Origin: Blasia pusilla
Lineage: Eukaryota
Assembly (NCBI GenBank): GCA_050084515.1
Contig: CM114271.1
Location: 38,874,001-38,938,000, forward strand
Reading direction: 5' to 3'
Length of the DNA stretch: 64,000 nt
Shown here one piece after another: positions 14,001 through 56,270 of the stretch; the first letter of the stretch is position 1, and every line of letters begins with the position of its first letter. A program made the translations under genes and the position numbers. The notes under the pieces are model-generated. The model was not told where the DNA came from. It saw only the letters and a list, made by a program, of their open reading frames with translations, and did no database searches.

Positions 14001-14046
14001 ATCTCAGACAATGAAGGGTTACCAAAGGTTTAGGTCTAAACAAGGA

Positions 14047-21900: not shown

Positions 21901-22615
21901 ATCAACACCATCATGTGAGAGAGCTTCTAGCATTCAAAATGTCATTAAGAATAGGTTAAGAAATAGCTTAACCTCTTATCACTTGGAAGCTTTGCTAAGG
22001 GTTAATATGGAGGGTCCAAATGAGAATTTTGATGTAGATAAGGTCCTCATTTCTGCTATGGACACATGGAAACACTCAAAGGAATATAGATTTGTATATG
22101 CTAATCAAGAGTTGTACATTGTTCCTCCCGTTGTACTTGAAGCTGTTGAGGAAGGTGAGCTTAACCCTGACCCTTCATCCTAGTTTCTCTGCGACTTCAT
22201 TTCATTTTGCAAATGCTTTTAGTAATTATTTATTTTCTGTAGTCAAACCCCTCCTACAAAGAAAGTTCATTTTATGAATATTCCTTGTAGGAAGGGTTCT
22301 TAGCACCTCTCGCCCCCAACTGGTAGGGGGAATTCTGGTTCAACTCCAGCCATAGGGACTTTGTTTATAACCAGAACTAAACTGAAAGGTAGAAAATGTG
22401 ACTGCAAAAAATGGGCATGCCAATTCCAAGCCCATCAAAAAACTGGTGGCTCAAGTTACATGCAGGAAATAACCTTAGAAGGAAAAAAATGTTAGGCAAA
22501 AACTTGAGAAGGTAAAAAATCTTAGGGGGTCGACTGAGAATTATTCCAGAAAACCTAAATATTTTCAGAGACTCGGAAAAAAACTGATGTACTAAAAAAT
22601 ACTGTCCGAGCCCTG
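18937..22615 (+). mobile_element. Full-length hAT DNA transposon with 16-bp TIRs and 8-bp TSD
   Basis: Left TIR CAAGGCTCGGACAGTA (18937-18952), right TIR TACTGTCCGAGCCCTG (22600-22615, one mismatch); identical flanking CTTCCTCC at 18929-18936 and 22616-22623. Confidence 0.97.
19950..22183 (+). pseudogene. Disrupted hAT transposase (ZNF862/DUF4371-type)
   Basis: ORFs 19892-20359, 20359-21318, 21340-21537 and 21554-22183 carry GIMVDESTDIS, FGSDGASTMVG, VHCVAHRTNL, VRWLSR and STPSCERASS; collinear with the transposase at 11720-14000. Confidence 0.92.
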
Positions 22616-25723: not shown

Positions 25724-28593
25724 TTATGCCTTGTGGTGCCGTTGAAGAGACGCCGGGGGAGAGGGGAAGGCGGAGAGAGGAAGGCGAGGGGTGAGGAGGA
25801 CTTCGAGTGGAATTTCTTTGTGGAGGACGAGTCCGAAGCGTTCGGAAAAGTCCACGTCCTGGGGACTCATTCCGGCCGGGAGCTTCCAGTCGAAGCACTG
25901 GAGCAGGATGGCAATCGTGTGCTGCAGTATGAGGACGGCGAAGTTCTTCCCCGGACACATTCTCCTCCCGGATCCGAAAGGGAGCAGTTCGAAATCCCTG
26001 CCGTGGACGTCGACGCTACTCGACGCGAATCTCTCGGGCCAGAAGTCGTTCGGTCTTTCCCAAACCCTTGGATCTCTGCCGATGCCGTAAGCGTTGACGA
26101 AAACCATGCTCTCTGCCGGAAGGAAGTACCCATCGACCTCGCAGTCTGCCATCGAAAAATGCGGCACCATCACGGGGGCAGCGGGATGGAGCCGCAAGAC
26201 TTCCCGCACGATGGCGCGCATGTAATTCAGCTTAGGGACGTCCGATTCCTCCACCAATCGCTCCCGCCCCACCACTGCATCTATCTCCTCTTGAGCCTTT
26301 TCCAGCGCGTCGGGCCTCCTCAGTAGCTCCGCCATCGCCCACTCCAATGTCGCGGACGTAGTATCCGTTCCCGCGAGGAGAATGTCCTGTACAAAATCGC
26401 CCATCTCAGGAATTAGATCGCACGCCGTGACCGGTGCTAATCTGCGAGGAGGTGCCGGCTACCTACCTACCTTTCGCAGCAATCCATCAAATCAGATCAC
26501 GGCCAAGCTTGTAGAAGCGGGCTTCCATGTTCACATTTGCAATTTGAGCCCTGTTATGGTTTCTCTAAAAGCATCGACTAGTTCAAACGATCTGAGCACT
26601 TCTCGGATTAGATTTGTCGCATGCTGAAAGCTCCGAGTGCGATTCCATCTCACGACGTCCCAAGTCGCAACAGCGCTGCCGGCTTTCTACCAATTCACAG
26701 CCCGAGAACAGAGTGATCCGCCACGTTTTTGAAGAGCCTATTGCTCTCAGCAGGGTCGGAGATACGCCTCCGTCCTAGCTGGGGCTACAAATCGAACCCG
26801 GAAACCCCAGTTTCCATGCGATTCAAGGTCAATCAACTTCCAGCGAAATATGGTCCGCTCAGACCAAATTTCGCTGGAAGTTGCGGACCATATGACCCCA
26901 GGATCTTCCTGCCGTCCATCGATGGACTTCTGCCCCGTTCCGCCTTCACAGAGACTCTGAGCGGGCAATCAGTAGTGCACCTGATTTTCTTGATCGATCA
27001 TGAGCAAGGACTATTCGAATGATCATGACTCGAGTCTGCCAACAAGGACCCGTGCTCCTTGATTGTCTGATTTGTTCGAGACACAAGCCAGAGCATTTTT
27101 CCACGCTAGCAATTGCGATCATTCCCAAACAGAGTCAAAGAATTCAACAGCGTATGAAGTGGACTTACAAATAGCACCCCTTTCATCTCAGTTTCAGTTA
27201 GAACTCTCCCACTTTCGTCTCCCTGAGTCGATAATGTCAGCAGCACATCGACCAGATCCCTCAAGTTGTTCTTGTCTAAGGTCTGGCGATGCTCGTCGAG
27301 AATGGCATCGAAGAATTTGTGAATTTTGCCGAAGGACACTTTCATAGCCTTTCTACTCCCAAACAGATCGAAAGGCTTCAAAATAGGTATGAAGTCTCCC
27401 ATATCCAGTTGACCCAAACCCTCAAAACACTCCCTCAGGGTCTCCTCAAATTCGAACGATTCTTTAGAAATGTCTGCCTCGTCTCCAAAGTAGTTCTCGC
27501 TGGCCATCATGCGGGTCAAATTGTTTGCGATGAAAACAGAAAACTTGACGTTCATCGCCACTTCTTTTCCCCCTCGAGATCCTTCCAGTAAGTCCAGCAG
27601 TAAAGACGCCGTCTGCTCCCTTCTCATGACCTGTGAGGTCCAACTACTCCCAAGTCAGAATGCAACATATACGCACTCAAACCCACCGAGCATTCGTGAG
27701 CAGTTCCCCCATCTCTGCTCATCCTCAGAGTTCAGGTTCTAATTTACAACTGGACTCAGAAGCGATCCGGAACAGTGAGAACAACGTCTCGATCTGACCT
27801 CCGAGGGGTGGAAAATACAGTCGTTTCAGACCACAAATTCACCCCTGCGGATAGGACTCAGTTCTCCAATCCCCCGTCTAGCGAGGCCTGGATCTGGCCA
27901 GAAAGTTCTTCAACAAAATCGTTGAGATTTTGGGGTTTCCACATCGAGAACGTTCCCTTCAACTCCAAATGGCGGAAGGTCGATTGATTGATCGATTTCG
28001 GCATGACAACAGCAGATTTGGAGGAGTAAAAGGTCTACATTTTTGGTCTAACCATCAACCAGATCAAAGAATATTTACACGGAAATTTCAGAATTCTTGG
28101 AAATTCTGATTCCGACATAGTGAGTCATCACTGGTGGACGAGCAGGAATCCACACCTGGAAATCTTCAAGCCGCTTCGGGTTGAGGAGTTCCGTCATGTA
28201 CAGCTTCTTCAGGTACCGTGAGTCAACTCCGTAAGGCGACAACCCCATCAGCCGACTCTGGATATATTTCAGCTTCACACCATTTAGACGCGACGCAAAG
28301 GTGAGATCATGAGTCTTGAGAATCAATTCCGCTAGTTTTGGTGATGAAATTATCACGGCAGGAATCGCACCCATGCGCAAGGACGTGATCGGCCCGTACT
28401 TCTGCGAGAGCTCCATGAACAAAATGTGCGGCTTTTGGTCTCCGGCCAGGAGCGGAAGATTTCCCAACACAGGCCACGGCTTCGGGCCCGGAGGATATCG
28501 TCGGCGCCTCTTCGAACTCGCCAACTTGCCGAAGATGAGCAGCACCATCACTGCCACAGCGATCCCCGTGATCAATTCCCAACTCGCTTCCAT
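25724..28593 (-). CDS. Cytochrome P450, CYP71 clan (A-type); 3 exons 28593-28156, 27630-27169, 26386-25724; ~520 aa
   Basis: N-terminal TM anchor, PPGPKPWP, AGTDT (I-helix), EVLR, PERF and PFGSGRRMCPG (heme). GT-AG phase-0 introns join the exons into an uninterrupted frame. Confidence 0.95.
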
Positions 28594-30339
28594 CTTCGCC
28601 CGCTCGCACCAATCCTGTACCCTCGGATTTCCTACCTATATGAATGATATCGCCTCGGAACCTCTGAAACCAATCCGACCTGGTCGCCGCAGACTCGATA
28701 GATCCTGAGACACGACTCCCGTGCACACATCCGCAGATCCGGTGAGGTATCGCGCCACCGAGAGTTCTTTTGCTGGGATTTGCGAATCAGCCTCGATCGA
28801 TCGCGGCCCAAGATCTCCGAATGCGCACCGAACTAGCCGCATGGCTGGACCTTTCCACACCTCATGAAAAAGAAGACAGACGGAACTGGCACTTTTGCAG
28901 ACTCCATGAATTTGTGCACGTCCAGTTGTTCCGGGCAGTTGGTTGCACGACCTCTTCTCTCCCGGCCGATAGCCGGCAGATGTCTGCGTCTGGGAATTCG
29001 TCCCCTTTGTATCTCCTCGGTCCTCCACCGGGGGACTTATCTCCTCGGTCCTCCACGGGGGACTCGCTAATGAGTCCTCTCGAGTCGTGACTGGTTCAAG
29101 TTTTGAACAACCGTCACCGTCGATCGGAATGGAACGCCGTAGAAAGTCCGTCGACGGAGCGGGTAATCGCTACTGGACGTCGTGTCGTGTTCGTTTGCAA
29201 GGGCACTATGCACAGAGTCACCCGAGTGCGTCCGATTAATTATGAGCTAATCCTACATCGTTTTAGCATGTCAACGACTGTCGGTTGGGGAGTCGCGTAG
29301 CGATCATGCTGTCCTGTCAGGGGCGCAGTCTCCGTCTCCCTCCTCTCCGTGTTGGCGGGGCCCGTAAGGTGTCCGTCTCATGTGCTGGATCTTACGGAGT
29401 GAGCTCACGGCTGGACACGTGTCAATGGCCCACGGGTTAAGCGTTCGTTCCTCAATGCTGCGGGAGAAAGAACTTGTTTCCAATTCGGGAATAGTTCCAC
29501 TACGACTAATGGCCCAAAAGTCATTTAATTTAAATGAATATCTCATTTCCACCTATTCGTGAATTTCGGGAGGAAGGGGTCACACTTGGGACAGCATATT
29601 TCCTTACGTCAGGACATGCGAAACGTGCGAAAGAGGACTACATGCACTGGTGTAACATTCCACAAAATGACGTGGCTATTTTAAGTGTGAGGAGAATGAA
29701 TTTCCATACTATGGCACCATGGAAGAATCCATATTCTACGTCATAGGTAACAATATAAAGCAAATTCTCAGGAGCTAAAAGGTACCTCCTCGCACCCCCA
29801 AGACACACAACTAGTTGACTAATTCTCAAATCGAATAAGACAACATGGGATGGGAGAAGGATACCCTTGAATCAAACCATTTTCCACATAAAAAGTCTTC
29901 CGAGATATTTGCAGGCACACCTTTACCTTCGATCCAACTCCTGACTTATGAGAAAAATAATATAAGAGTATGTTACTACCTTAGACCACTTTATTTGTGC
30001 GTATTATTATTTGTCATTTTCGTGATTATGAATACTAATTACGAGTCGAATAATGGAATAATGGAAGGAGCCGTCATTACCTTAGACAGATTCATTTCTA
30101 AGTATTATATTTTCATTTGCAAAATGAAAAATCATGCAAGAGTGTGTCACCGCCTAACACTTCTTCATTTCTATTTATCATATTGTCAATTACATCATGG
30201 AAAACTTTGCAAGAGTGTTTCACAACCTAAGACCTCTTCATTTGCATGCATTGTATTGTCATTTGCATGAGGAAAATTAATGCGAGACTCTCATAATTTT
30301 ATTCCCACCCGATTATGACTTCATGGAGTAATAAGAACT

Positions 30340-32371: not shown

Positions 32372-33786
32372 AATAAGTTCCCTGCTAACTAAGTTGACAC
32401 ATATACTCATGTTTCACAAAAATAGTACTAGTTGTGACTCTTTTTCCTTATGTTACAAAGATTTCAATCACGACTAAGTAAACATGTCTAGCCATGCTGC
32501 CAAACACTAACTACCGATGAGATTAAAGATGAATTTCTTGAGTTGTCTCAAACTTAAGTCCCAAATATCCCTACTAATGGGTTTGACATGCCTGCCATCA
32601 TAAAGTACGATGTCCACATGCATACCTTTTTACTTGATGGGTTTGGCCAATTCTTTGTAAATCTTGTCAATTCTATTTAGAGATTCTCAAGTGCAATTTG
32701 AAAGTCTAGGAAGAATTTAATTGTAAATTTTTTTAATTTTTTCTTTAAATTTAAAAATATTCATTTTTAGAACATATAAAGAATTGTTCTTCGAACATGT
32801 TGAACACTTATATTATTATTATTAAGTTTTAAAAATTAAAAATTTTCTATTGGGATCATATCATCATGTGTATATTTCAAACGCCAATATTAGTAATGGT
32901 ATGTATTTTCTCATTTAAGTTCATTTAAAATTTATATGATGGGAACTTAATAAACTTAATTTGTGTACATTGCATGGACCATTGAATCTAAATTATTCCA
33001 TGAATACAGCAGTTTTTTGTTTATTGTTGCAGTATTTTTTAAGATTAACACTTTTCCCTTATCTAAATTCTCTTTTTTTAATTAATTTTTAATTCCATTA
33101 TTTTTCATGCCTTGCATGGGTAATTAAAACACAATCTATAATAATTTGAGCTTTATAAGTTAGGGAATTTTTAATTCTTTGGTCTATTTTTAACTTTCAA
33201 AAATAATTGTGCAAAATTTTATCTTTAAGAATTCCAAAAAATTGATCCTTTTCTTTTTTCATTAAAATATGAAAAAATGGAGAAATTATTAACAAGGATT
33301 TCTTATTGAACAAAACAATGAAAGTGTTAAATTTTCAATAAGAGAGAGATTTAGGGAAAGATGTAGTAAACTTTGAATAGGGAAGGGGAAGGGGAAAATG
33401 GATAATTTTCAAGAAGGGAGGGATAGTGGATTCCTAAGGGAAAATATTTTAATGTTTCCTTTTCAATAAAATAAGAAAATACATAGTAAAAGTATTTCCC
33501 ACCACCCTGCCCAACGCTTTATCCAAAGGGGTGAAGACCCTCTTTGGAGATTTAGGGAGGGCCCATCAATCCCTACCCATTCTTAAGGGTAGAATTTGAC
33601 TCCATCTCCCCATATTTATCCCCAACCTTTCATGGGGAAATGAGATAGACAATATAGGTAGGGTCAAATCCTCTCCATTCCTTTAGGGAGTAAAGTTATG
33701 AACCAGTATGCATCCCTCTTTAGGGTTTTGAGTTTTATAACAAACTTTAGAACAAATTCTTATTCGGAATAACATCGGGAGTAACA

Positions 33787-33945
33787 CGGTGCTTGGTGGG
33801 TCGGAGAACACGAATCCGAGTAGGAAGCACGAAGGTTGAGAGAACGGCGAAGGTGAAATGGGAAGAAACCCGGTGCTTGGAGGGTTGGAGAACACAAATC
33901 CGAGTAGAAAGCACGAAGGTTCGGAGAACGGCGAACAGGTTAAAA
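33787..33945. repeat. ~84-bp tandem duplication just left of the Gypsy insertion
   Basis: CGGTGCTTGG...GGAGAACAC.AATCCGAGTAG.AAGCACGAAGGTT...GAGAACGGCGAA occurs twice. Confidence 0.8.
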
Positions 33946-33997
33946 AGAAGTCTTGAATGGGAACTATTCTATTATGTATTAATGGGAACACGGACAC

Positions 33998-34477
33998 TGT
34001 CACATCTCAGTAGCCAATAGGCAGAGATCTATCGTGGATAGGGCGTAGGAGCCAATGGACTATCTTGAGTGAAACTTTGTCCCACGGTGTCGGATGAGGT
34101 TGAGGATAGGTCCGTTGTATCAGGAACATCGTTTTTGACAACTTTCCTGTTGAGGTCTTTCATAGTCGGGTGACTTGTTGACCAGGTCACTCGCCCCTGG
34201 TAACTTGTACGCGCAGGTTACCAGGAGGATTAGCTATTTTTCGGGGAAGAGTCTTTTGGCTCTTCCTAAGCTTATCTAAGGGAGGAATATGGCTTTCCCA
34301 AGCCATCTTTCTCAGGTTGGGCCATTGGAGCACCTCTCTTATATGTGTGTGGATAGGACTAGGGTGCTAGCATCCGGATTCCTTGATACAACAGGATGGA
34401 CGAGGCTCGATATGCCGATGTAGATTGAGGAGTGGAGTTTTAGGTTGGGTGTGCCATTTTTACTACTCTTTATTTTT
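33998..34477 (+). repeat. Terminal repeat A1 (5' LTR-like)
   Basis: Aligns end to end with 42978-43456. Confidence 0.92.
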
Positions 34478-36179
34478 ACATGAGAAAGATATCAAGGGGC
34501 TGGTAGGAATTCATTGTTTGCAGGCAGGCAAGCGAGTTGCCTCGGTGGGGAGCCCCTAGAGATGTTGGTTGGCGTTTCATTGGTCATTTTTCTATTCGGA
34601 AGGCCGTGGGCGAAAGCGCTGTTTTTTCTTCTCAGATTTTTCTCGTGTAGGTTAACGAGGGACAACAACAGAGTGGGAGTCACGCAGGAGCGCTCGGGTG
34701 CAATGCAAAGGGTTGGAGCGTTGGAGAATAGGCACAACGGGAGTGTAGAGAGAAAACGTTGAGAGTTTGTAGCGGCTAGGGAGGGGGCCCGCATAGGGTC
34801 GCACGTGCCCCCCCCCCCCCACCTCTTTTTTCGGATGTGGTTGGCGCCATGGTCGGCGCCAACATCGAAATCGTCGTGGTCGGTGCCTCCCACGCAACAT
34901 GGTAACCAAGTAGGGCGTACGTGGTAGCAGTGAAGGATATGTGGTAGAACTATGGGCAACGTGGTAGACGGGATGACATGGTTGAGTTCAGACGGAGTTG
35001 AGTAAGGTTACGGGGGCGTTTGGGGATGGGCGGAGAGGTTTGCGCGACGTGATGTTTTTTTTCGAGCATGGTTAGGAGTTGCGAGGGTTGTGCTGGGGAC
35101 ACACACGCCGATGCTGGCGGGAGGTTTGACGAGTGACCGAGGAGATGGTTGTGCTACGGACGTTGTCATATCACGTGGAGGAGTGAGTGTTGACGGTGTA
35201 GTAGGTTGGAGGGCATGATTAGGTTACCCATTCGAGTCCCTTTTTCCCACACTTATCTTACGTGATTGAGAGTACTAGGTACCAGATAGTAGCTGGTGCT
35301 AGGTGGGTGCAGTGATGGTGATGAGTGTAGACTCTTTTCATGTCTAGCATGTTGGTGGATATATGGCGGTTGTCAAGTAGGGGTCGCATGTATGACCCGA
35401 GCGTGTCGGTAGGTTAGGTGAGTTAGTGGGAGACTCATGGTGAGCTTGAGTGTTGGGTGTGCGTGAGGTTAGGTGTGTCATCACGGGATTGATGTTAGCA
35501 CAGGTGAGCTAGTGAGGAGTGTGGGAGACTCTCGGTGAGTTTGAGTGCTTGAGCGGATGAGACAGGGTTGTCATCACGGCGTTCTTCCAGGGTTCGGAAG
35601 AACTGGGTAGTGCGAGCAGTAGTAGTGGTGTGACACGGAGTGGAGTGAGATACCGAGGGGTTACGAGTGAGGAGCTACCGCGATATCCATCTGTGGTTGG
35701 ATCTTCATCACTAGACACCGGGTCTGGTGACGAGATCGCAGACGGAGGCAGTATCACTTGGCAAGAGATGGATGACATGGGCCATCGGGGCATGCATCGT
35801 TTCTCGGGTGCAGCGGGCACCATCGACTTAGATGATTTATCCATGAGTTCAACACGTGGTGCGACTTCCAGGAGATACGGACCCGACACGGTCCAACCCT
35901 TTCATGGCATGGAAGGGGTTGTTCCATCACTTGGAGGGTCCTCCGATGGATGACTACATGGAGTTTCGATCACTATATTCAGTAGAGATCGATGCCTAGA
36001 GGATGTATTGGGCTCCAGGGTATGTGTTCACTAGTGGTCACGAGGCATATGATGGGATCATGAGAGGAGAAAGATCCACACCATCAGCCCACAGACTAGA
36101 TGGAGAGGAGGGCAGTGAGACAGGCGATGTGGCAAAGACCTCTGGTGATAGAGGTCCACCAAGCTTTAGTCCCAAAGTG

Positions 36180-36900
36180 GAGTTCTTCCGACAGTTCGGG
36201 AACCAGGGCGTACGCACTGACAACTTGAAGAGTCTATAGGATTTTCAGCGACGATCGGGTGAGAGTCTGAGAGAGGCATTCACGCGAATGAGGAGGTTGA
36301 TCATTGCTACGTATGGAGCGACTGAGGCGCAGTCACTCTAGTATTGGTACGGGGTTCTGGACCGAGAACTACGGAGGAGAGTCCCGGATGCAGTGCTGAT
36401 TCACACAGCGAAGCCCACATTGAAGGTGGTCTTTGAGTTGTCTGAGCGTGTTAAGCTCAACATGAGTGAAGAGCAGGTAGTGACCGCTGGATTTTCTTGA
36501 GAGTCGACGGGCAAAAGCGATGGTGATCCCACAAGTGCCACAGCGAGCACCAGTACCACGGGAGCGGGCCAGTGTGCCCAGAGAGCAGGTTGGGTACCGT
36601 GAGCCTATGAGGCAACGAATCCTATCTACATATGGTGCCCAGCAGGGACCGATGTTGTCTTGTTGGAGGTGTGGAAGGGCCCATAGGCAGAGAGACTGCA
36701 CACAGCATGGGAGAGGACCACGAGCGCCTCCGATTGCTCAGGAGCCATAGAGGATGGCCCCACCATAATACTAGTGTGACCATTGCCACAGATATGGTCA
36801 CACGAGGGATAGATGTTTTGACCTTCGTCGAGAGGTACGTCCGGAGGTAGGTCGAGGGCCTCGGGGCGGTCATCCTGGAGGAGGTCGGGGAGTTCTTACT
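36180..36900 (+). pseudogene. gag: gag region with two zinc knuckles
   Basis: FQRRSGESLREAFTRMRRL (capsid MHR-like), CWRCGRAHRQRDC, and in a shifted frame CDHCHRYGHTRDRC. Confidence 0.75.
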
Positions 36901-37659
36901 AGACGTGGTGGTAGAGGACCACCACCAGCAAGAAGAGATGGAGCAGGAGCACCAGAGCTGGCACTTCTCTCATGCATCGATTAGTTGGAACAAAGGATTG
37001 CTGCCACGACAATGATGCAGCTCAGGGAAGGCGCAGAGCCACGAGCAGCTAGTGTGGCTCCAGCTTCTACCTCTTACCCTGACGTGGGTGAGGATCTCGC
37101 TAGTATGGGGTTTATGTGTAGTGCAGCTCAGGTTGAGACGGCTGCAGTGGTAACTCGGGGTGCTGCAAGAGGCACCCAGCCATCGAGAGGTGGAGTTGAG
37201 ATTGACCCATCGGAGGGGACCGATGGACGGTAGGCTAGGGTTTCACAGTCATTCACATTGTCGGAGACACTACACACACCATCGATGGTGCCTCAACAAC
37301 CAGCGGTGCCTACAGCTCAAGCAGGTACGTTGACGTCACAAGGAGTTGGAGTGACAACTCCTATGTCGGCTCAAGTGGAATCAATGTCGACCATAGTGTT
37401 GGAAGTGGGCACCAGAGTGAGTCAAACTCTGCTATTTTCCGCCATAGAGTTGGCGACGTTGGGAGTTAGACCAGTTGAGGTGTTCCGGTTGGCCGTCATG
37501 TTGTGTGAGCGTGGCGAGGTGACTGCTTCTTGTTCAGAGGTAGTTGAGGAGGTGGTGGACTTGCCCTAAGAGCCGATGCTCGAGACGTCCCCCACAGAGT
37601 CATGGCATGCAGCGGCGGCGAAGTTGATAGATATGCCAGCTCGACCGGCCATAGAGCGA

Positions 37660-38110
37660 GCAGTGGTGACACCTGGAGTAATATTACTGAATAATCAAGC
37701 TGGAGTATTTTGCTTGGTTAGTCCGATGGGAACAGAATATCACCCGCATCGCGTCCTTCTTGATTCCAGAGCGCAGCCCTTGATGTTAGGGAAGGCGGCA
37801 TGTTTAGCGTTGGGATACGGAAGGCCGACATTGAGCCTTGTCCCTTCCAGATACAGACCTTGATTGGGGGCGTATCACCCACGCAGTATATGACTTGACA
37901 AGAGATAGTTGTTAGAGTCCAACCAGAGCATGCGATGGATAGTGCTATGGTGCGCACACGTGAAATTATGACACCAGCTGAGTCGTACGATGTATTGGTG
38001 GGAAATACAATGTTATATCCCCAAGGATTCATCCTTGACTTCTGGGAGGAGACCGTTGCTTATCGACCAGTGTGGCGGTCAGATGACGGGCGGATGAGTC
38101 AGTTACCCGT
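37660..38110 (+). pseudogene. Retroviral-type aspartic protease, decayed
   Basis: RVLLDSRAQ (DSGA-equivalent) and downstream YDVLVGN (flap-distal ILG-type motif). Confidence 0.7.
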
Positions 38111-38474
38111 GCAATTTGCGGGACGAGGTGGTCGATCACGAGACGAGTCTGTGACCACGTTGGCAGCTTTCACATGTAGTGTTAGCTGGCCAGGAGAGTT
38201 GTTGGAGGGGAATGCACATGCGGAGGATGTGCCAGTAGCAGATAGTCCCATGGAGAGACAGGCCATGGCGGGTATCTCTTCCCATGTTGGCGAGACCTCT
38301 TCACCATTGTGGGGTATGACTCGAAAGCTACAGAGGAGTGTATACAACCTCATGAGGTAGGCGTGGAGTCATGCCTTTATCCCGGAGCAGCAAGATTCAG
38401 GTGGCGATCAAGACCCTGGAGTAGAGACGTTGATCCCATTGGATACCACACCCGTTGTGTGGAGTGTCTAGAGG

Positions 38475-39420
38475 AAGGTGTTAGGGTGTTAGATCTTTTC
38501 AAAGGGATTAGCACAGGATTGGTTGCGGTAATGCAGGCAGGGATACGGGTGCATTAGTACCTTTATGTGGAGAGAGATGAGACCGCGCGGCGAGTATCAT
38601 TACGTCACGTAGCGAGATTGGTCTAGAGGTATCCTGAGTTGTTTCCGATATCTGCAGTATGGGAATATCATCATACACTACCCACCGACATCTCTTTGGT
38701 GGGGGCGTAGGATCTAGATAGAGTTGGCACCATTCATTTGGTGATTTCTGGATGGCCATGTCATGGTCATTCATCACCTGGCCGAGGGTTTAGATTGCAG
38801 GATCCGAGATCAGGGATGTTTTGGGAGATGCTGCGAGTAGTACGACACTTGCAAGAGAGTCACACATCTTCTCCGGCGTACATTTTGGAGAATGTGTTGT
38901 TGTTGGGAGACACTTGTGCACGTTTGATGACGAGTGTGCATCAGGTGACCTACTGTGTTGCTAGATGCAGCGAGAGTTGGATCATGCACCCATCGTCCAC
39001 GACTATGGTGGATGAACCTAATACCATCAGAGGTACTGAGTCAAGCATACGATGGAGTCTAGAGAGCACCACATCTCACAGTGGATGCTATTTTGGGCTC
39101 ACGGCATCGATCTCAGGTAGTGACATGGGATGATAGACCACCGTTGGCGGTGGCCAATAGAATCGGGGAGTTGACGGCACCCTTACCTACGTTGGTGAGC
39201 TTCCCAACATCCCATGCCTTTCGTCAAGGAGGGCTAGGCATGATTTGGGATGAGGTGACCTGAGCATTAGAGGAGCCTATAGAAGATGAGCGCGAGCGCG
39301 CCATGGGGTTTGCTACATGTACTACGGTGGTGCCAAGTATGACAGAGGCATCCGGGAGATAGATGTTGGGGCACGCAATGGACCTCAACTGTCTCACATG
39401 GATAGTCAGCCTAGGTATGG
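38475..39420 (+). pseudogene. DNMT3-like C5 cytosine DNA methyltransferase domain within pol
   Basis: Motifs in linear order across frame breaks: VRVLDLFKGI (I), YVE (II), VISGWPCHGHS (IV), DPRSGMFWE, YILENV (VI), HRPRLWWMNL (VIII), ERERAMGF (IX), LGHAMD (X). Confidence 0.9.
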
Positions 39421-39713
39421 CTGAGCAGAGACGGATGTGAGTGTCATCCATGCCGTCACGTCCACGAGTTGGACCATTGCCTACAGGGTCTCTACAGGCA
39501 TTGGCTGGGGGCGGGACGAGGAGAGATAGGCACCCATGGACTTCTTGGAACGTCGTTCGAGCGGAGAGTGAGAAGGCGGCCAGAGTAGCACATGTTCATT
39601 TTTTGGATGTGGAGCATGGTGTAGGAGGTCAGAGTGGAGTGGCTATTGCAGAGGTGGCTAGGGTTGCTACATAGCAACCAAAGCTGGAGATTGCATCCTC
39701 TCCGAGTGAGGTC

Positions 39714-41108
39714 ATGATGGAGACTTACGAGCCTATGATACGTCTCAAGTTGATAGGAGGAGAGCGACGGCGAGTTCATAGGTTTCTGAGAAGGCATGTT
39801 AGTTGTTTTGCCTTCAGTATGAGAGACTTGGGTACGCTGAAGGGTCCCGGGGTACGGATTGAGTTGGCTAGTGATACGCCGATCTTTTGTCGATCCTACT
39901 GGTATTCTAATATGGAGCAAGCCTTGATTCAGAGTAGGAGTCAGGACTTGTTGGAGGCAGGACTTGTGGAGTTATCACATGGGGAGTATGCATCTGCCAC
40001 AGTCATGCCGGCGAAGAAGGATATGTATGGCAATTGGACGGATAGGCGGATGTGTGGAGATTACCGTCCTATCAACCGACAGACGAGGTCAGATTGGCTC
40101 GCCATGCCTACACCTGAGGAGATCTTTGATGCGGTAGGGCATGCAAAGATCTTCAATACTTTAGATCTCCGTGTTGGCTATCATCAGCTTCCTATCAGGT
40201 TGGAGGACAAGAAGAAGACAGCATTATGGGGGATGGATCGGTTTGGGAGAGATTGCTTGTATCAATGGCGATTCTTACCATTTGGGTTGAAGAATGCGCC
40301 CGCGGAGTTTCAGAGAGTGATGGATAGGATTCTGGCTGGCTTGGAGTTTGTACGATGTTACATAGATGATATTCTTATCTTCAGTTCCACGGTTGAGCAA
40401 CATGAGCGACACTTGGAAGAGGTGTTTCGGCGATTGCAGTTACATGGACTTGAGTTACATCCAGGCAAGTGCACATTCTTTTAGGAGCAGATTGAGTACT
40501 TGGGACACACCATATACCCGAGTGGATTAGGCGTTCAGCACACAAAGGTAGAGGCTCTTGGGAAGATTCCACGCCTTACAGGTGTGATTCGAGTCCGAGC
40601 ATTTCTTGGATTGGCGAGCTTCTATCGACGGTATGTCAAGGGTTTTAGTACGATCGCAAAGTCTTTGACCTTTTTGACAAGACTTGATCAGGTTTGGTTG
40701 TGGGGAGATAATCAAGAGCAAGCATTTCAGGAGCTCAAGGACAGGTTGACGTCCTCACCCATTTTACAGAGACCGGTTAGGAGTCGCCCATTCCAATTAC
40801 ATACGGATTGGAGCGTGTTGGGTCTAGGAGCAGTGCTTACTCAGAGAGATGACGAGGAAAGGGAGTTCATTGTGGCTTACGCAAGCCGATCGAACAACAT
40901 TGCAGAGGCAAAGTATAGCTCTTACAAGGGAGAGTGCTTGGCTGTAGTGTGGGTTGTGGCACATTTCAGGTGCTATTTATTCGGCAACCCTTTCACACTT
41001 ATCACTGATCATCAGCCGTTGAGGTGGTTGATGAAGTCTGACAAGCTTACGGGAAAGCTTGCCAGGTGGGCTCTATTACTACAAGAATATGAGTTTGGTG
41101 GTTCATAG
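39714..41108 (+). pseudogene. pol: Reverse transcriptase and RNase H
   Basis: RMCGDYRPIN, LDLRVGYHQL, LPFGLKNAP, YIDD; single in-frame TAG at 40482-40484; then LHTDWS, VAYASR, ECLAVVW and TDHQPL. Confidence 0.96.
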
Positions 41109-41499
41109 GCCAGGTCGGGTGAACCAAGATGCGGATGGGTTGGTCATAACCCATGTCCGAGTCAGAGAGACGACACATGAGCTTGATGGCACGGAGAGAG
41201 TGATGAGGAGATGGTGCCCGGTTGGCATGCATCTGCCTATCTTTGTTGGTTGACTATGGTAGGTCAGCCATAGGTGATGACTGTAGTGGTGGGGTTGGAT
41301 GATGAATCTTTGGATCCGTAGATCAGTGAGGAGGCGACAGGTGGTCATGATATCCATGACGACGTGGAGGTTATGGAGTTCTTGCGCATTGGCGTCATAG
41401 CGAGCATAGTGAGTGTTAGGGAGCGGGATCGGATCCTACAGAGAGCCACGAGGTTCAGGTGGGAGGGGACTCACATTTTGTGGGTATGGGGAGATGGTA

Positions 41500-42560
41500 G
41501 GATACGAGTGGTACCTCATCCTTCCGAGCAAGCACGTGTAGTGCGACATGCCCATGAGGAGTTGGGACATTTTAGAGTAAAGCGTACTTACACCTTACTC
41601 CATGTTCAAAATTCGTGGTGCGGCATGCATACTGGGGTACAGAAATTTGTGGCCAGATGTATGGTATGTGACAAAGTGCGAGCATCTTGCAATGCTCCCA
41701 CTCCGCAATTACATCATTCGCCGATTATTTTTTTAGGTTATCGGTGGAGTTTAGACTTTGTGGGACCTTTGCCATTGATGGGGCATCATCACAGGTATGA
41801 GTTGGTCATTTCTCCAAGTGGATACAAGGCGAGTGAGTGAATAGCTTATGCGTTTCTAGATCGTGTGCTTGGTCACTTTGGTGCACCGGCGGAGGTGTTG
41901 ACTAACCAGGGTACCGAGTTCATGGGAGAGTTTCAGGCCTTGTGTGATCAGGCACTAATAGATCACCACACCACGTCCAAAGATCATCTTGAGGCGGATG
42001 GGTTGGCAGAGAGAGTAGTATAGACGGTGAAGAAAGGATTGAGCAAGTATGGCTTGCAGCGGGGATAGTTGAGGGAATGGGACCTACATTTGCCATTGTT
42101 GGCTATGGGTTATCACTTTAGTCGGCAGGCATCCTTGGCGTCATTTTCATCGTACTTTTTTCTCTTTGGGAGAGACCTAGATTTACGTGAAGCTATTCAA
42201 TATGACATGGTGCAGGTGTTAGATCTTGATGATCCAGATGTATGGGTACAAGCATGTTCTCAAAGGGCGGAGATTTTTCGTAGAGTTATGCCTATGGCCT
42301 TTGAGAACTTAGCTATTGCTGAGCATAGAGATACATTGAGGTATGCGACCATTCGTGGAGGAGGTTATTGTCCAAGTATTAGGAGGTTTCATCCTCGAGA
42401 TTATGTGTATTTACAGCAGGCGGCACCCACGACGCTAGATGTCACTACAGGGCGCATGATCCTACGTGTGCGCGAGGTATTACTGACCGGAGTTCTCATA
42501 TTGGAGGGACGGGATGGTATGTTTTGGAAGGATCGTGTGCGCAATTATGCGCCATATCAT
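41500..42560 (+). pseudogene. DDE integrase, decayed
   Basis: HHCC region HAHEELGH...CMVC; WSLDFVGP; VLTNQGTEF (D-to-N at the catalytic position); DGLAERVV. Confidence 0.9.
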
Positions 42561-42617
42561 CTTCCAAACGTAGATGGGACAGTGGATCCAAGCTTGGCAG
42601 TGGTACCTGTAGGCTTG

Positions 42618-42761
42618 AGGTGTATGTTGTGCAGATCTGCGAGGGGTGCAGCCATCATGTTGGTATGTGATGGTTGTTCTCAAGGGTGGCATATGTCATG
42701 TCTGAACCCCCCTCTTGATGTAGTTCCCACAGGACGATGGATATGTCCGAGATATGTATAG
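42618..42761 (+). other. PHD finger at the pol C-terminus
   Basis: CMLC...MLVCDGCSQGWHMSCLNPPLDVVPTGRWICPRY fits the C4HC3 pattern with the last Cys changed to Tyr. Confidence 0.9.
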
Positions 42762-42841
42762 GATAGTAGGTCATGTTAGAGAGATGAGATATTGTCTATC
42801 TGGAGTTAGGGGGATCCAACTGCCAACTAGGGGAGCGGTTC

Positions 42842-43594
42842 TGTGATGTCCATATATATATATGAGTTGATTTCTGTACATGTGTGGATCTACCCGGGTG
42901 TGGGGAAGATTGGTGTTATGTAGTGTAGATGTGACCAGCGATGTATGTTGTGTAGCGATATGGATGCACACGAGAGTTGTCACATCTGAGTAGCTGATAG
43001 GCCGAGATCTATCGTGGATAGGGCGTAGGAGCCAAAGGACTGTCTTGAGTGTAACTTTATCCCACAGTGTCAGATGAGGTTGAGGATAGGTCCATTGTGT
43101 CAGGAACGTTGTTTCTGACAACTTTCTTGTTGAGGTCTTTCACAACCGGGTGACTTGTTGACCAGGTCACCCGCCCTGGTAACTTGTGCGCGCAGGTTAC
43201 CAGGAGGATAACTATTTTTAGGAGAAGAGCCTTTTGGCTCTTCCCGACCCTATATAAGGGAGGAAGATGACTTTCCCAAGCCATCTTTCTCATGTTGGGC
43301 CGCTGGAGCACCTCTCTTGTATGTGTGTGAGATAAGACTAGGGTGCTAGTGTCCGGATTCCTTGATAGCGCAGGATGGACGAGGCTCGATATGCCAATGT
43401 AGATTGAGGAGTGGAGTTTTAGGCTGGGTGTGCCGTTTTTACTACTCTTTATTTTTGTTGTGTGATGTCCATGTATATGTATGAGTTGATTTATGTACAT
43501 GTGTGGATCTATCCGGGTGTGGGGAAGATCGGTGTTGTGTGGTGTAGATGTGACTAGCGATGTATGTTATGTAGCGATATGTATGCGCACGACA
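42842..43594 (+). repeat. 3' terminal region B1 (42842-42975), A2 (42978-43456), B2 (43461-43594)
   Basis: TGTGATGTCCAT...GATCTA.CCGGGTGTGGGGAAGAT...CACGA occurs at 42842 and 43461 on either side of A2; purine-rich AGGGGAGCGG lies just before B1. Confidence 0.92.
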
Positions 43595-44539
43595 ACACTA
43601 ACATCCGACTGTTAAAAATTGATATCCTACGATCGAGAACCTGCAAAATATCTTGCATTCTGCAAGCTCTGCGTTCGGAATTGCCTTGTTGTAGAGGCCG
43701 CAAGGAATTGCCTTGTTGTAGGGTCCGTTAAGAGTAGAGATGGAAAATGAGTTCGATGGTATAGGGAAATTAGGAAGACTAAATGACCCTTTGTTATATC
43801 TAGAAGAGAGATAGCAAATTGGGGGAGTCCTTACCCCCTTGAGAGCAACGAAGAATGGGGGAAGATGTGGAGGTTGGGCATGGAAGGGCAACAAGAAGGG
43901 TGGAATGTGGCGGGGGTCAAGGGCCGAGAGTGAGAGAAGTGGGAGGGCAAGAGGGGAAGGGGAACCAAAATTGGGAAGCAAAAAGTATGCAGAAAAAAAA
44001 ATTGTGGATCTTTATGAAATCCACATGAAAGTTGCAAGTAGCAACAACTTTATGATGAGAAACCCATGCATTCACTTTGGAAAAAACTTCAGAAAAAATT
44101 AAATCATTCAATGTTTAACAAATCTTGAAGATACAAACAAGGATACAAAATAGCCGGCCTAGTCTATTTGTATGTTCTTTGTAGAGCTTTGATGGAACTT
44201 GGATATGGAGAAAAATTCACATAGGAGAATGTGCTATCGTAATGGTTCATCACAGATATATGACTAGTCTATAAAATAGGGTATTACCTATTCTCTTCTA
44301 TACTATGAATAGAAAAAAATTTCTTCATTTTGCGTTAAGGAATAGGGATCTATTCCAAAATTGATTTATGTCATATAATAATGACTCCTTTGAAGTTTTT
44401 GTTAGAAATATTAATCTAGATGTTTCCTCATATAAGTGAGTCATTAAGATTAAAGGTGCAAGTCAAGAAGTAGAAATTAAATATCCAACATCACTCTTAA
44501 TATCCACCCTATATGGACTATTGTCTTGAACCAATGCCA

Positions 44540-50076: not shown

Positions 50077-52867
50077 CTAGTTTGTATACTTTCGCTTCCT
50101 CCGTTCTCCAGCCCCAGCTCTCGTTGTAGGTTCTGCCTTAACAGGCACAGGAGGAAGAACTGGTGCCTGTGTGACAGGAGGAGGTGGGGGTGGAGCAGGT
50201 TCTTCCGGCAGAGGCCGTGGCAGAATGTGTTTTAGTCGGTTGTTTCGATGATGTTTCCAAAAGTAGAATTGTTGTCTATGTGCCACCTCCTGTACACAAA
50301 AAAACATGTAGACATGAAATTTCTTCAGGCATCTGATTAATTCTGGTGGATCCATTTCCATCTTAAGGCAGTTTGAACCTACACAAACTACAAGCATTCA
50401 CAATGTGTTTCACCACCAGTAACCTATCTTCAAGAAACTAAATATCAATATTCCAAAATATAACATTTCAAAACCTTGTTTGCTGGGTGAGCCATAGCAC
50501 TGCGGAATTGTGGACTTTGCAGCAACTCAAGAAAGAAGAGGGCATGAGGATACCTGCGACATTCAAGGGAATAATCAGCCACAAACTGAACCAAATTGCT
50601 CAAAAACATCAACTGGAGTCGAGTCATCTCAAGTTCGTGTGCTTTTGGTTTACAAGAAAAACAATCAAAGATGGCAGTTGCTGAAAGCTGTTGCTAGTGC
50701 TTGGATGATCCAGCTTTGACAAGACTAGCGCTCAAGTTCAGTTTCAACCATACACTTGGTGATAGGACACTACACCCACATTATTTGGCAAAGCAAAAAT
50801 CCGCCCTTTTGAGATGGACAACTGAGTAATTTCATCCAACACTAAGGAAGGGGACAAGGACATCAAGCCATTCCCATACAAACATTATGGTAGGAAGGGT
50901 TTAATTCCAGTGTCTAACCTTGAACTTATGTGGCCTAAGAAGTGGTCAAGGAGAAGAAGGGGTATGCTCTCTTATGGATATCACACCGCATAAGTACCAT
51001 CTTCTAGATCTCACCCAAAAGACAGCTTTCTCTGGACCATGCTTGCTCAATTCAAGACAGGGTCCACAAAAACCTGACTGTCTCTTAACCTCAGGTCAGT
51101 AAAATCACCGGTAAGTAAGTACCTTTAGTAAGAACCTGTCTATCTCTTATACCTACTTTAAGACTACCTCAGCCAAGAGACAAGTCCAGGAACCATTGAG
51201 GATCCCAAGTATTTACCACCATTATACCGTGATTAAGGCCTGAACTAGTTTGCACTGTAAGTTTACCCACAGCCTTCATAACCTTAATCACTATACTGAA
51301 GGACATGGTGTGTTTTGCCGGGAACAGAGTGAATTGAAAAGACCTAATTTGTGCACAGAGTTTTAGTCAAGATACTACATTGATGAAATACTATGTTGAC
51401 CCTTCTGGATCCATGCCTTCACTCGCTTTCCTAGACACTACTGTCAAAGAAGCCATCGACCAGACCCATAAACTATATTTTGTGAATCTCAGACTCTCCA
51501 AGGAGCAAGCTGGTTTTCTAGGCCTAACACTGACAAATGACAAGACGGCATTCTCCATGAGAAGGACATCACCAATGAATAAGCACCCACACACACCTTG
51601 GCACCAAGAGAAATTCAGTGAAAATAGACACTTAGGGCCAACTGTGTAGTTGCCAAAACTACTGAACATCTACATACAAAAAATGTAACAAGGCCTCTAG
51701 AATGGCAATCCTTCCCAGGAAAATTTGATCTCAAGTATTCCTTCAGATCTCTTGAAGAAAGTATCATCCTCATGACCTAAAGTTCACCTAGTGCAACCAA
51801 TTTTTGGTGCAGTAGTATAACCTTCTAAATAAGAAAGTTCACTTATTTGTATGTCTCAGTTACATCTCACAGGGGAGGCAAGATCTGCCAAACAACTTCC
51901 AGTCTGTAACAATATGAATACAGCCATAACGCGCGAGTACAAAGAGCCTAGCTTCTGCCAATCTCTGTTAGAGCCAATTGCCAAAACATAAGTTAGCTCG
52001 TGAGACATGCTCACAAGGAGTTAGGTCATTTTGGAGTCAAGCGTACGTATGACTTGCTTCAGATTCAGTATTGATAGTGTGGTATGCGAACTGATGTTCC
52101 TCACGTCTCATTCAGAGCCCACGAGCTCTATGCTCTTTTGAGGTGATTTTGTTTCTTGAGTACCCTTGAGACTTGCAACAGAACGCTTTCATCCTTGCGT
52201 AATTAAAATTCCAACTATAGGATCGCTCACTGAAGTTCCAAGTCCTCTTTGTTTCAATAAAGTAAGCCACTAAATGTACATTTCAACACTGGCAGAATCG
52301 CGAGGCGAGGTGCTGCAGAAGAAAACAAGTTCGTTTTTCACTTCCAATTAGAGGCACAGGAGACAGGTTTGGTGCACACAGAATGAGTGAAGAAAACCAA
52401 GCATGAGGTGGAATCTCCCTAATCCTGGACAGCCTTCGAGATATTCCCGTGAAGAAAGAGGCAACTCACACAATAAACTTTGAATATTCAGGGCGCTGCC
52501 AGTACTGGAGGTACTTAAGGTAGCCCACAAATGCCTCATCATCAAAATAACGATTTTGCGCTAAATCTGCAAAAGCAAACAGAACGTCAGGTGTTATTCG
52601 TTTCGACTAAAATTCGTACTTGTCATGAGATCAGCCGGTGATAACCTACGTGTACGTTCTCCTGAAAATTAAGACTTAAAGCAAACTTTGCATAGAAGGA
52701 AACGGAACACAAGTATCCATATGAATGAAATGAGAGAGAGAGCACTCACAATGTATGTAAGTAGGATTGGCCAGACATTGGATAAATTCAAGCTCAAGCT
52801 CAAACCGCTGGCGACCTCCGTCAGTCTCTTTCAAACCCCCGTCCTTGACGCCTCCATCGTTCTGCAT
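50077..52867 (-). CDS. MED31: Mediator subunit 31 (SOH1); exons 52867-52750, 52566-52470, 50553-50475, 50289-50077; ~168 aa
   Basis: RFELELEFIQCLANPTYIH|YLAQNRYFDDEAFVGYLKYLQYWQRPEYSKFIV|YPHALFFLELLQSPQFRSAMAHPANK|EVAHRQQFYFW; GT-AG introns with consistent phases. Start codon and extreme C-terminus are less certain. Confidence 0.95.
52000..52100 (+). mobile_element. ~100-bp Gypsy integrase fragment in MED31 intron 2
   Basis: GTGAGACATGCTCACAAGGAGTTAGGTCATTTTGGAGTCAAGCGTACG aligns with 41541-41640. Confidence 0.75.
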
Positions 52868-54946: not shown

Positions 54947-56270
54947 TGTCGTGCGCTTAGATACTCATCACTCCACAATCCACATTGTTGATCACATCTA
55001 TACACAAAATATCACTAATCTTCCCAACACACGGGTAGATCTGCACATACTTAAATATAGACTCGGATAGATTTGCAAATATACAAAAATAGACTTAGGT
55101 ATGTACACCAAGACTATATAATGTTCACGTGCGCATACACATTACTATATAATTGACATCATTCATTGCAACTACACACCAAACATCATCGATCTTCCCA
55201 ACATAGAGATAAATCCACACAAAAGAAAGACTCATGCATGTACACTAAGACGACATAACCGCCTTTGTAATTTGTGGTTAGTTCCACTACCTCCAAGTAC
55301 CATATATCACATCAACACAACATGCTCTATAACCTTATACATATTTGGGACGTAACCATCATTCCGTGGGAACCACATCAAGAGGCACGTTTAGACCTGA
55401 CATGTGTCACCCTCTAGAATAATCATCACACACCAACAAGGTGGCTACATCCCTCGAAAATTTCACAAAGTTATCAACAACCAAGGTCATTCACACAACT
55501 CCTACATACGCAAGCACTCTATACTCACAAATACGCTACACACGAAAGGAGTTTACACTTGACACCATCTCTACACCCATCCGGCATAAGGTCTATCCAA
55601 TACCTAGCATCCTTAATGACAAGAGACAAGTGCAAGAATATAGTGGGACTCAAATAGGTAACGTAAACATGCGTGCCATCACCCTACTATGCAATCAACA
55701 ATAATTGCTGCATGTCGTATGGAAACCTTTGTGGCACCATAATTTCCTCAAATAACAAGTTGAACTTCCCATCAACAAATTCGGACTACCCATCGGCATC
55801 AGCACATGTATCACCACCTCTACCACTCTATTGCGAATGGTCGATGGGGATCATTCATCTCAACCCTCGTCAGCATAATATTGGCGAGTCAGAACTCTGT
55901 TGAAAAATCTTGATGGCTAGCGGATCCTACCCCAAATAATGATCCATGACTTGAGTCTCAAGTCAAAAAATTCAAGGAAAATTTCTCCTTCCAAATCTCA
56001 TGTTGCGCTCTTGTTGATGCTAGCTACCCGCATGCTACACCTAAGCGCTACTCCCCAAAACTTTGCTACTACCCTACGTTAATTTGCTACTAGAAAAGCT
56101 CGTTAAAGAAAAGGCACTACTTTTGTGCACGACCTTCCAAATGGAAAAATTGACCTAACATCAAATACAACATCTCTCCAAAGGCTCTCTAGCAATGCGA
56201 CTCAATTGCCCACCTGCACACATCAAATCCCTCCTACCCCCTTACATCTTTCTCAAGTGAAATCAAAACG
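54947..56270 (-). mobile_element. Internally deleted, decayed relative of the DNMT/PHD Gypsy element
   Basis: Terminus TGTCGTGCGC at 54947 is the reverse complement of the B2 end; two B-like repeats; PHD remnant LLVCDDYSRG*HMSGLNVPLDVVPTE at ~55330-55440; leader similar to 34478-34650 at ~56090-56262. Confidence 0.8.

Follow-up and report, generated by a model that had tools for sequence, protein, structure and literature searches.

A probable DNMT3-type cytosine methyltransferase in the Pol of a Ty3/Gypsy retrotransposon family, seen in a decayed copy from Blasia pusilla

Introduction

KnitGypsy-Dnmt3, from the charophyte alga Klebsormidium nitens, is described in the text of de Mendoza et al. 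2018 (PMC5890265) as a Gypsy-type element with an intronless, DNMT3-like DNA methyltransferase (DNMT) in its Pol open reading frame (ORF). The motifs of this enzyme are unrearranged and the domain is reported to be under purifying selection. According to the same text, the transposon enzymes of K. nitens belong to a divergent clade related to Dnmt3. In yeast, KnitGypsy-Dnmt3 gave no methylation, a result that its authors judge inconclusive (PMC5890265). DNMTs are also carried by DIRS elements and long interspersed nuclear elements (LINEs) in Symbiodinium, and the DIRS enzymes are shown there to be active (PMC5890265). Here, a DNMT-bearing element is described from a land plant, Blasia pusilla. 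The element lies at 33998-43456 on the forward strand of a 64,000-nucleotide stretch, hereafter the window (NCBI GenBank assembly GCA_050084515.1, contig CM114271.1, positions 38,874,001 to 38,938,000). All positions refer to the window.

Searches of the running text of papers outside the subscription journals gave no land-plant case of a Gypsy element with a DNMT. The text of a 2026 preprint (10.64898/2026.05.21.726589) lists just "streptophytes (Gypsy-DNMT3)" and the dinoflagellate cases, and that of a 2025 paper (PMC12344493) gives an identical list, citing the 2018 work. In the text of a Marchantia preprint, MpDNMT3b is treated solely as a host gene.

The window element is a decayed Ty3/Gypsy long terminal repeat (LTR) retrotransposon, and the Pol of its family very probably includes an intronless DNMT3-type C5 cytosine methyltransferase. 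This reading is given a probability of roughly 0.85. The element is about 9.5 kb long and has the order LTR, gag, protease (PR), DNMT, reverse transcriptase (RT), RNase H (RH), integrase (INT), PHD finger and LTR (Table 1). Its two LTRs and the succession of RVT_1, RT_RNaseH and Integrase_H2C2 matches in Pfam are those of a Ty3/Gypsy element, and an intronless DNMT3-like domain within the Pol ORF of such an element defines it as a Gypsy-DNMT3. Gypsy-DNMT3, previously a charophyte-algal kind, is thereby extended to land plants.

The window element and KnitGypsy-Dnmt3 are alike in having a DNMT3-like domain within a Gypsy Pol. In P0428, a partial sequence and the sole named K. nitens protein found, the DNMT lies upstream of RT, as in the window. 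The two elements differ in several respects. Their DNMT domains belong to one superfamily but fall in separate clades, and the host of the window element is a land plant rather than a charophyte. The window element has plain direct LTRs, whereas a figure legend of PMC5890265 gives DIRS-like repeats for KnitGypsy-Dnmt3. A PHD finger follows the integrase in the window, whereas none is mentioned in the text of PMC5890265, figures and supplements aside. The family is also far more abundant in B. pusilla than the "fewer copies" that this text gives for K. nitens. SymbioDIRS-Dnmt3 of Symbiodinium likewise has a DNMT3-like domain in a retrotransposon Pol, and it carries out de novo CG methylation in yeast, but it belongs to the DIRS class, without LTR or integrase, and its host is a dinoflagellate (PMC5890265).

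The methyltransferase domain

The domain occupies 38474-39437 on the forward strand, between PR and RT. It is complete as a C5 cytosine methyltransferase domain, its motifs following one another linearly from I to X. Motif I reads VLDLFKGISTG, in which the FxGxG of the S-adenosylmethionine (SAM)-binding motif is degraded to FKG. The motif II region reads YLYVERDE, motif IV reads GWPCHGHS and motif VI reads AYILENV. Motif VIII (THRPRLWWMN) lies within LLDAARVGSCTHRPRLWWMN, motif IX reads EDERERAMGF and motif X reads MLGHAMDLNCLTW. Motifs I-VI are taken from the translation of 38390-38959 and motifs VIII-X from that of 38955-39440, which is one base out of frame; X within a translation is a stop codon. 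The motif names and numbers follow the general pattern of the C5 methyltransferase family.

The domain matches Pfam PF00145 (DNA_methylase) with an E-value of 1e-6 and 28.9 bits, against a cut-off of 22, and a single stop-free ORF piece passes the cut-off too (E 1e-5, 25.6 bits). The C-terminal half can be aligned residue for residue with the intact relatives across motifs VIII-X. When intact relatives are used as tblastn queries, the matches fall into three segments: 37803-38462 and 38955-42746 share a frame, and 38474-38947 between them is in a different one. Two frameshifts therefore flank the N-terminal half of the DNMT domain. At the first of these, 239 of 511 whole-genome sequencing (WGS) reads from the same species have an extra C behind 38462. 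Six in-frame stops lie within the domain and one lies just downstream. The domain is collinear with the intact proteins and no introns are required.

A sequence-only reading of the window had listed these motifs in linear order on the pol strand, with no sign of introns, between PR and RT. It had named a frameshift-aware translation and a hidden Markov model search in advance among the checks. The translation, the PF00145 match and the tblastn collinearity agree with that description. The same reading had called the domain DNMT3-like rather than DRM-like and the copy inactivated by stops and frameshifts, and both statements hold in the comparisons that follow.

Relationship to DNMT3 and DRM enzymes

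The motif order is linear and DNMT3-like, unlike that of the circularly permuted DRM enzymes. In the permuted order, motifs VI-X precede motifs I-V, whereas the window and its family run from I to X. The family profile (A1) matches DNMT3A with an E-value of 8e-22 over three collinear stretches (motifs I-II, IV-VIII and IX-X). The match to DRM is weaker (E 5.6e-14) and covers the motif I-V half alone, and that to M.HhaI has an E-value of 1e-7. No DNMT1 or DNMT2 chain is matched by the family profile at E 0.001 or better.

For the intact member P0013, an AlphaFold model made with 21 aligned sequences has a predicted local distance difference test score (pLDDT) of 92.7 and a predicted template-modelling score (pTM) of 0.91. 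In the Foldseek search with this model, all matches listed to rank 50 are DNMT3A, DNMT3B or DNMT3C. The top match has an E-value of 3.4e-21 and template-modelling (TM) scores of 0.71/0.80. Among 11 intact proteins of the clade, the W-P-C-Q-G of motif IV and the N-V of motif VI are invariant, and the E of motif VI is nearly so.

The catalytic domains of animal DNMT3A, DNMT3B and DNMT3C are the best match in both profile and fold and also run linearly from motif I to X. Identity to them in fold alignments is 21-24%. They differ from the domain described here, which has no PWWP or ADD domain beside it and sits within a retrotransposon polyprotein. Plant DRM2 is related in motifs I-V, but it is circularly permuted and aligns by its C-terminal motif I-V half alone. 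A DRM-like permutation intermediate was considered and rejected: a PDB alignment reached DRM motif X, 25 residues upstream of motif I, but this stretch is out of frame. The resemblance to DRM motif X is spurious, because the relatives put the upstream frame in the LxPLDTTP block.

The domain as a feature of the family

A one-off capture is, a priori, what usually lies behind an odd domain in an old, decayed element. The element in the window would then have taken up a host DNMT3 gene or a processed copy of one, and the rest of its family would have no methyltransferase. The two frameshifts that flank the N-terminal half of the domain are in keeping with such an event. Three independent lines bear on it: the WGS reads, metagenomic loci and proteins in public collections.

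In WGS data from the same species (run X18), 104,733 of 12,434,590 sampled records, or about 0.8%, map to 33000-44500 at 80% likeness. Summed depth is 936, 1053 and 1126 in the three DNMT bins and 1039-1237 in the gag and PR bins (35304-38375). The depth on the DNMT thus matches that on gag and PR, roughly a thousand-fold above the flanks, where it is 0.24-1.5 in three of four bins and 11.8 in the fourth (44136-44500). The most conserved RT bin has a depth of about 2850. A joint from 38644 to 39408, which would excise most of the DNMT, is found in 3 reads only. By likeness to the window, 135 mapped reads are at 99% or more, 3063 at 95-99%, 36,199 at 90-95% and 65,336 below 90%. Most mapped reads are less than 95% alike, and the family is old and diverged.

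Joint Genome Institute (JGI) metagenome contigs, scanned with the alignment of the clade, contain 56 loci. The DNMT lies immediately before RT in all 15 of the long loci examined, with PR upstream as well in 14. A PHD finger follows INT in three of the eight long loci that reach a full INT match, and two long loci have LTR pairs about 8.7 kb apart. Most long loci are likewise decayed. In the best of them, L011, gag-PR, DNMT and RT-RH-INT are in one frame with two stops.

A HMMER search of the whole library gives 1469 matches with an E-value up to 0.001, and 286 of these reach 1e-10 or better. Many of the best 150 are polyproteins by domain mapping. One of these relatives, P0317, is intact at 2358 amino acids and has the Pfam order Asp_protease, DNA_methylase, RVT_1, RNase H, integrase and PHD.

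The DNMT is present in essentially all copies of the family in the host species. A one-off capture is contradicted by the WGS depth and by the recurrence of the same order in the 15 long metagenomic loci, in P0317 and in proteins of Marchantia, Calypogeia and Sphagnum. No repeats flank the DNMT domain. This explanation is rejected, with a probability close to nil.

Phylogeny of the DNMT domain

The named relatives of the domain include MARPO_0008s0049, MARPO_0204s0011 and MARPO_0020s0163 of Marchantia polymorpha, annotated as "hypothetical proteins", and sequences of Calypogeia fissa and Sphagnum troendelagicum, annotated as "unnamed protein product". The DNMT is 58-65% identical to the PR-DNMT proteins of Marchantia, Calypogeia and Sphagnum. 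In tblastn searches, the Marchantia proteins align collinearly with the window over gag, PR and the whole DNMT. They share 52% of residues with it in gag and 37-44% near the protease; the DNMT is 66.5% identical in its N-terminal half and 51-60% identical in its C-terminal half. These bryophyte gene models share the gag-PR-DNMT order of the window element and form one clade with it, but they are annotated as hypothetical rather than as transposon proteins and end before RT.

A FastTree tree was made from 162 DNMT domains with a coverage of 280 profile positions or more; it is rooted at the midpoint and contains no host-enzyme outgroup. In this tree, the window falls in a clade of nine tips with Marchantia, Calypogeia and Sphagnum (support 1.0) and is 65% identical to both liverworts. 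A Klebsormidium-like clade of 19 tips (support 1.0) shows 35% identity to the window. Shorter sequences were omitted from the tree, the K. nitens protein P0428 among them. This protein matches the Klebsormidium-like clade with an E-value of 6e-43, against 8e-10 for the bryophyte clade. A further clade of 76 tips (support 0.83), with sequences of Scenedesmus, Chlamydomonas eustigma and Cymbomonas, has the DNMT between RNase H and integrase. Since the clades differ in where the DNMT is placed, the position of the domain follows the phylogeny of the domain. The DNMT is inherited inside a retrotransposon clade that is common to liverworts and a moss.

The sequence-only reading had taken the methyltransferase to be part of the polyprotein of the ancestral element. 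At the level of the family this is borne out by the WGS depth, the long metagenomic loci, P0317 and the bryophyte proteins. It had also held that such domains are not a standard feature of land-plant Gypsy lineages. This is corrected by the presence of the clade, unremarked, in the annotated genomes of Marchantia, Calypogeia and Sphagnum. A further correction is the PHD finger, which Pfam finds after the integrase.

The green-algal Gypsy elements (the "pol" of Scenedesmus sp. and sequences of Chlamydomonas eustigma and Cymbomonas tetramitiformis) have a homologous DNMT with 34% identity to the window. Like the window element, they end in an integrase with a PHD finger. They differ in having the DNMT after RNase H rather than after the protease, and they form a separate clade. 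An old, Viridiplantae-wide Gypsy lineage may have carried such a "writer plus reader" pair, a DNMT3-type enzyme and an integrase-PHD, and persisted onto land in liverworts and mosses, but this is doubtful. If it were true and the enzyme active, bryophyte methylomes would receive a constant contribution of de novo methylation encoded by transposons, and the history of plant DNMT3 and DRM enzymes might then need to include exchange with such elements.

Two further placements in these comparisons are to be noted. The Sphagnum DNMT is 73% identical to that of Marchantia (P0369, P0309 and P0334 compared), no less close than Calypogeia to Marchantia with 74%. The closeness of Sphagnum and Marchantia may reflect slow evolution, horizontal transfer or contamination. 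P0341, labelled as a DNA cytosine methyltransferase of a Candidatus Obscuribacterales metagenome-assembled genome, groups inside the PR-DNMT transposon clade and is probably a eukaryotic contig binned among bacteria.

Selection, decay and expression

Ratios of nonsynonymous to synonymous substitution (dN/dS) were estimated by the Nei-Gojobori method from pairwise codons of 52 loci and the window, guided by tblastn with the L011 ORFs. Stop codons were skipped, pairs with dS > 0.05 were used and four loci with E 3e-6 or weaker were excluded. Median dN/dS is 0.50 for DNMT (interquartile range 0.33-0.63, 1270 pairs), 0.42 for RT-RH (568 pairs), 0.55 for INT (174 pairs), 0.73 for gag (333 pairs) and 0.70 for PR (594 pairs); most of the copies compared are decayed, which inflates all values, bringing them nearer to 1, and makes the estimate less sharp. 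Against the window, the corresponding values are 0.15, 0.09, 0.11, 0.26 and 0.24, and here dS is saturated (about 2.2), so the ranking alone is usable. As estimated from these ratios, the DNMT evolved under purifying selection comparable to that on RT and integrase and stronger than that on gag.

The copy in the window is dead and old and cannot make a methyltransferase. In addition to the two frameshifts and the divergence of its LTRs (Table 1), it has 19 stops in the pol frames within 37803-42746 (13 TAG, 6 TGA and no TAA). Relative to the window copy, WGS reads have G at its A in 314 places and C at its T in 233, with 149 and 125 places in the reverse directions. The types of stop and the read differences fit a decay mainly by C-to-T and G-to-A changes, as expected of methylated DNA. 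The observed/expected ratio of CpG inside the element is 0.72. On the coding strand of 34478-42977, there are 2700 G and 1645 C, and the GC skew is +0.18 to +0.30 in every 2-kb bin.

Three RNA runs from the same species have 3025, 3287 and 3201 reads on the element stretch. The first mate is nearly always on the minus strand, which corresponds to sense RNA if the library is of the usual stranded type. Depth is 3-9 over the DNMT and about 110 over RT, and most reads are less than 90% alike. What these reads show is that members of the family, or relatives, are transcribed, rather than the window copy. In the zinc-knuckle region of gag, 178-266 reads per run match the 35-bp piece 36649-36683 alone and run on from it into unrelated sequence, in perfect mutual agreement in all three runs. 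It seems that an unrelated, abundant transcript shares this piece. The RNA bump in bin 36456-36839 is due to these reads.

Several points weigh against a functional DNMT3-type enzyme in the Pol of this family, beside the saturation and blurring of the dN/dS estimates noted above. In PDB searches with the N-terminal half of the window domain alone, DRM2 (E 1.5e-6) is slightly ahead of DNMT3A (E 9.8e-6), an order that by itself does not decide between them, and the C-terminal half alone gives no match in Pfam or PDB searches. Among the metagenomic ORFs scanned (at least 400 amino acids), none spans gag to integrase, and even L011 contains stops. A demonstrably active bryophyte copy is not seen among the copies compared. 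The inconclusive negative result in yeast concerns KnitGypsy-Dnmt3, the one Gypsy-DNMT3 in print (PMC5890265).

Possible roles of the enzyme

Cytosine methylation is the main form of transposon silencing in plants, and a transposon with its own de novo methyltransferase inverts that logic. Candidate roles for such an enzyme in the element are self-marking of cDNA, targeting and self-restraint. Tentatively, and with rather less than even confidence, we propose that active members of the family produce the methyltransferase together with Pol and direct it at their own DNA. The enzyme would accompany the reverse-transcription or pre-integration complex and would methylate the new cDNA or the fresh insertion of the element. 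A new copy would thus enter the genome already with host-like methylation. The PHD finger of the integrase would read the state of the histone H3 tail and so choose or mark the insertion site.

The enzyme might instead act in trans, with the host genome or rival elements as its targets. It would then silence competitors or set methylation near insertions, or it would be tolerated as a form of self-dampening. The share of the family in the sampled WGS reads (about 0.8%) is such that its expression could count genome-wide, and low-level sense RNA is present on the family (3025 to 3287 reads per run). Options of this kind are listed in the discussion of PMC5890265. The location of the PHD finger on the integrase points instead to the integration step, and an action in trans appears rather unlikely.

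It is improbable that the domain has been retained for a purpose other than DNA methylation, either as a dead, DNMT3L-like module for DNA binding or oligomerisation or as an RNA 5-methylcytosine (m5C) methyltransferase that acts on genomic RNA. The yeast result for KnitGypsy-Dnmt3 is in line with such a role, and the text of PMC5890265 raises RNA methylation for the LINE-borne enzymes. Motif X of the family also lacks the usual GN dipeptide and reads LGxAMD. Members of the clade vary little or not at all in the motif IV cysteine (PCQ), the ENV of motif VI, the motif VIII RxR and motif I, which binds SAM, and this would be needless in a dead module. The modelled fold and the best matches are those of DNMT3 catalytic domains bound to DNA, which would likewise argue for methylation of DNA.

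The role of the enzyme could be examined in the relatives in Marchantia polymorpha, a transformable model with good methylome tools.

Layout of the element

The features of the element are given in Table 1. Pfam detects no gag domain in the gag region of the window, and the relative P0309 has a weak Retrotrans_gag match. There is also no Pfam match to the protease of the window copy, and the intact relative P0317 has Asp_protease_2 at the corresponding place. The linker between PR and DNMT terminates at the first frameshift, at about 38462-38474. The rve core of the integrase is not detected by Pfam in the decayed window copy.

Table 1. Coordinates of the features of the window element, with the evidence for each.
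Feature	Position	Strand	Evidence
5' LTR, begins TGTCAC	33998-34477	+	direct repeat with 42978-43456, 90.0% identity over 481 columns
gag region, interrupted by stops and a frame change	35931-37650	+	tblastn, collinear with gag part of Marchantia P0309, 52% and 37% identity
Two CCHC-type zinc knuckles in gag	about 36661-36699, 36775-36816	+	read from translation
Aspartic protease region, active-site motif degraded to LLDSRAQ	37650-38060	+	tblastn to PR of P0025, P0309 and P0316
PR-DNMT linker, conserved LLEGN and LxPLDTTP blocks	38061-38473	+	aligned with P0003, P0005, P0025 and P0309
DNMT N-terminal half, motifs I-VI, three TAG stops	38474-38947	+	Pfam PF00145; 66.5% identity to Marchantia P0309
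DNMT C-terminal half, motif VIII, target-recognition region, motifs IX-X, three stops	38955-39437	+	59.6% identity to Marchantia P0316
Reverse transcriptase	39795-40484	+	Pfam RVT_1, E 1.4e-25
RNase H	40701-41090	+	Pfam RT_RNaseH, E 7e-36; RT_RNaseH_2, E 4e-33
Integrase, H2C2 zinc domain and core	41520-42400	+	Pfam Integrase_H2C2, E 1e-10; collinear with P0317 integrase
PHD finger, C-terminal end of integrase ORF	42621-42752	+	Pfam PHD, E 1.9e-10 and 9.3e-10
3' LTR	42978-43456	+	direct-repeat comparison
Surplus partial copy, last 136 bp of internal region and first LTR bases	43457-43600	+	91% identity to 42838-42973

The PHD finger is found at an equal position in P0317, P0034, P0091 and P0320. 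Pfam finds no chromodomain at the integrase C-terminus, where the PHD finger stands instead, and the element is therefore not a chromovirus by this character. In P0317 and the green-algal elements as well, the PHD finger occupies the place at the integrase end where chromoviruses have a chromodomain. The final Cys of the PHD finger is replaced in the window copy.

No primer-binding site or target-site duplication is obvious in the flanks of the element, the right end of which is rearranged. No tRNA gene was found within the window. WGS read joints run from 43594 to 33996/33997 and point to frequent tandem or recombined arrangements within the family. Immediately left of the 5' LTR, at 33774-33935, there are two tandem 84-bp units that are 87% alike.

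Neighbouring sequence

No further DNMT remnants are present in the window outside the element in tblastn searches with P0317, P0309 and P0334. Two small fragments, at 51997-52098 (forward strand) and 55125-55468 (reverse strand), resemble the integrase zinc domain and the PHD finger with the 3' end of the element. Searches with the element's own pieces give only such small integrase and PHD fragments, at 51997-52098 and 55338-55468. Both fragments are probably left over from older, related copies.

Two paralogous sets of long ORFs, at 11813-14003 on the reverse strand and 19865-22183 on the forward strand, have a C17orf113-type zinc finger and DUF4371 and are hAT-transposase-like. A cytochrome P450 gene with at least three exons lies at 25724-28635 on the reverse strand and is GC-rich within AT-rich surroundings (exon Pfam E 1e-62). 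Among the 120 matches listed for the P450 exon, all named relatives are land plants, and the top single-domain identities (57% and 55%) are both to Calypogeia fissa. Taken with the clade of the element, these matches indicate a land-plant host, probably a bryophyte, and are too weak for a narrower group. A kinase-like ORF is present at 4671-5528 on the reverse strand.

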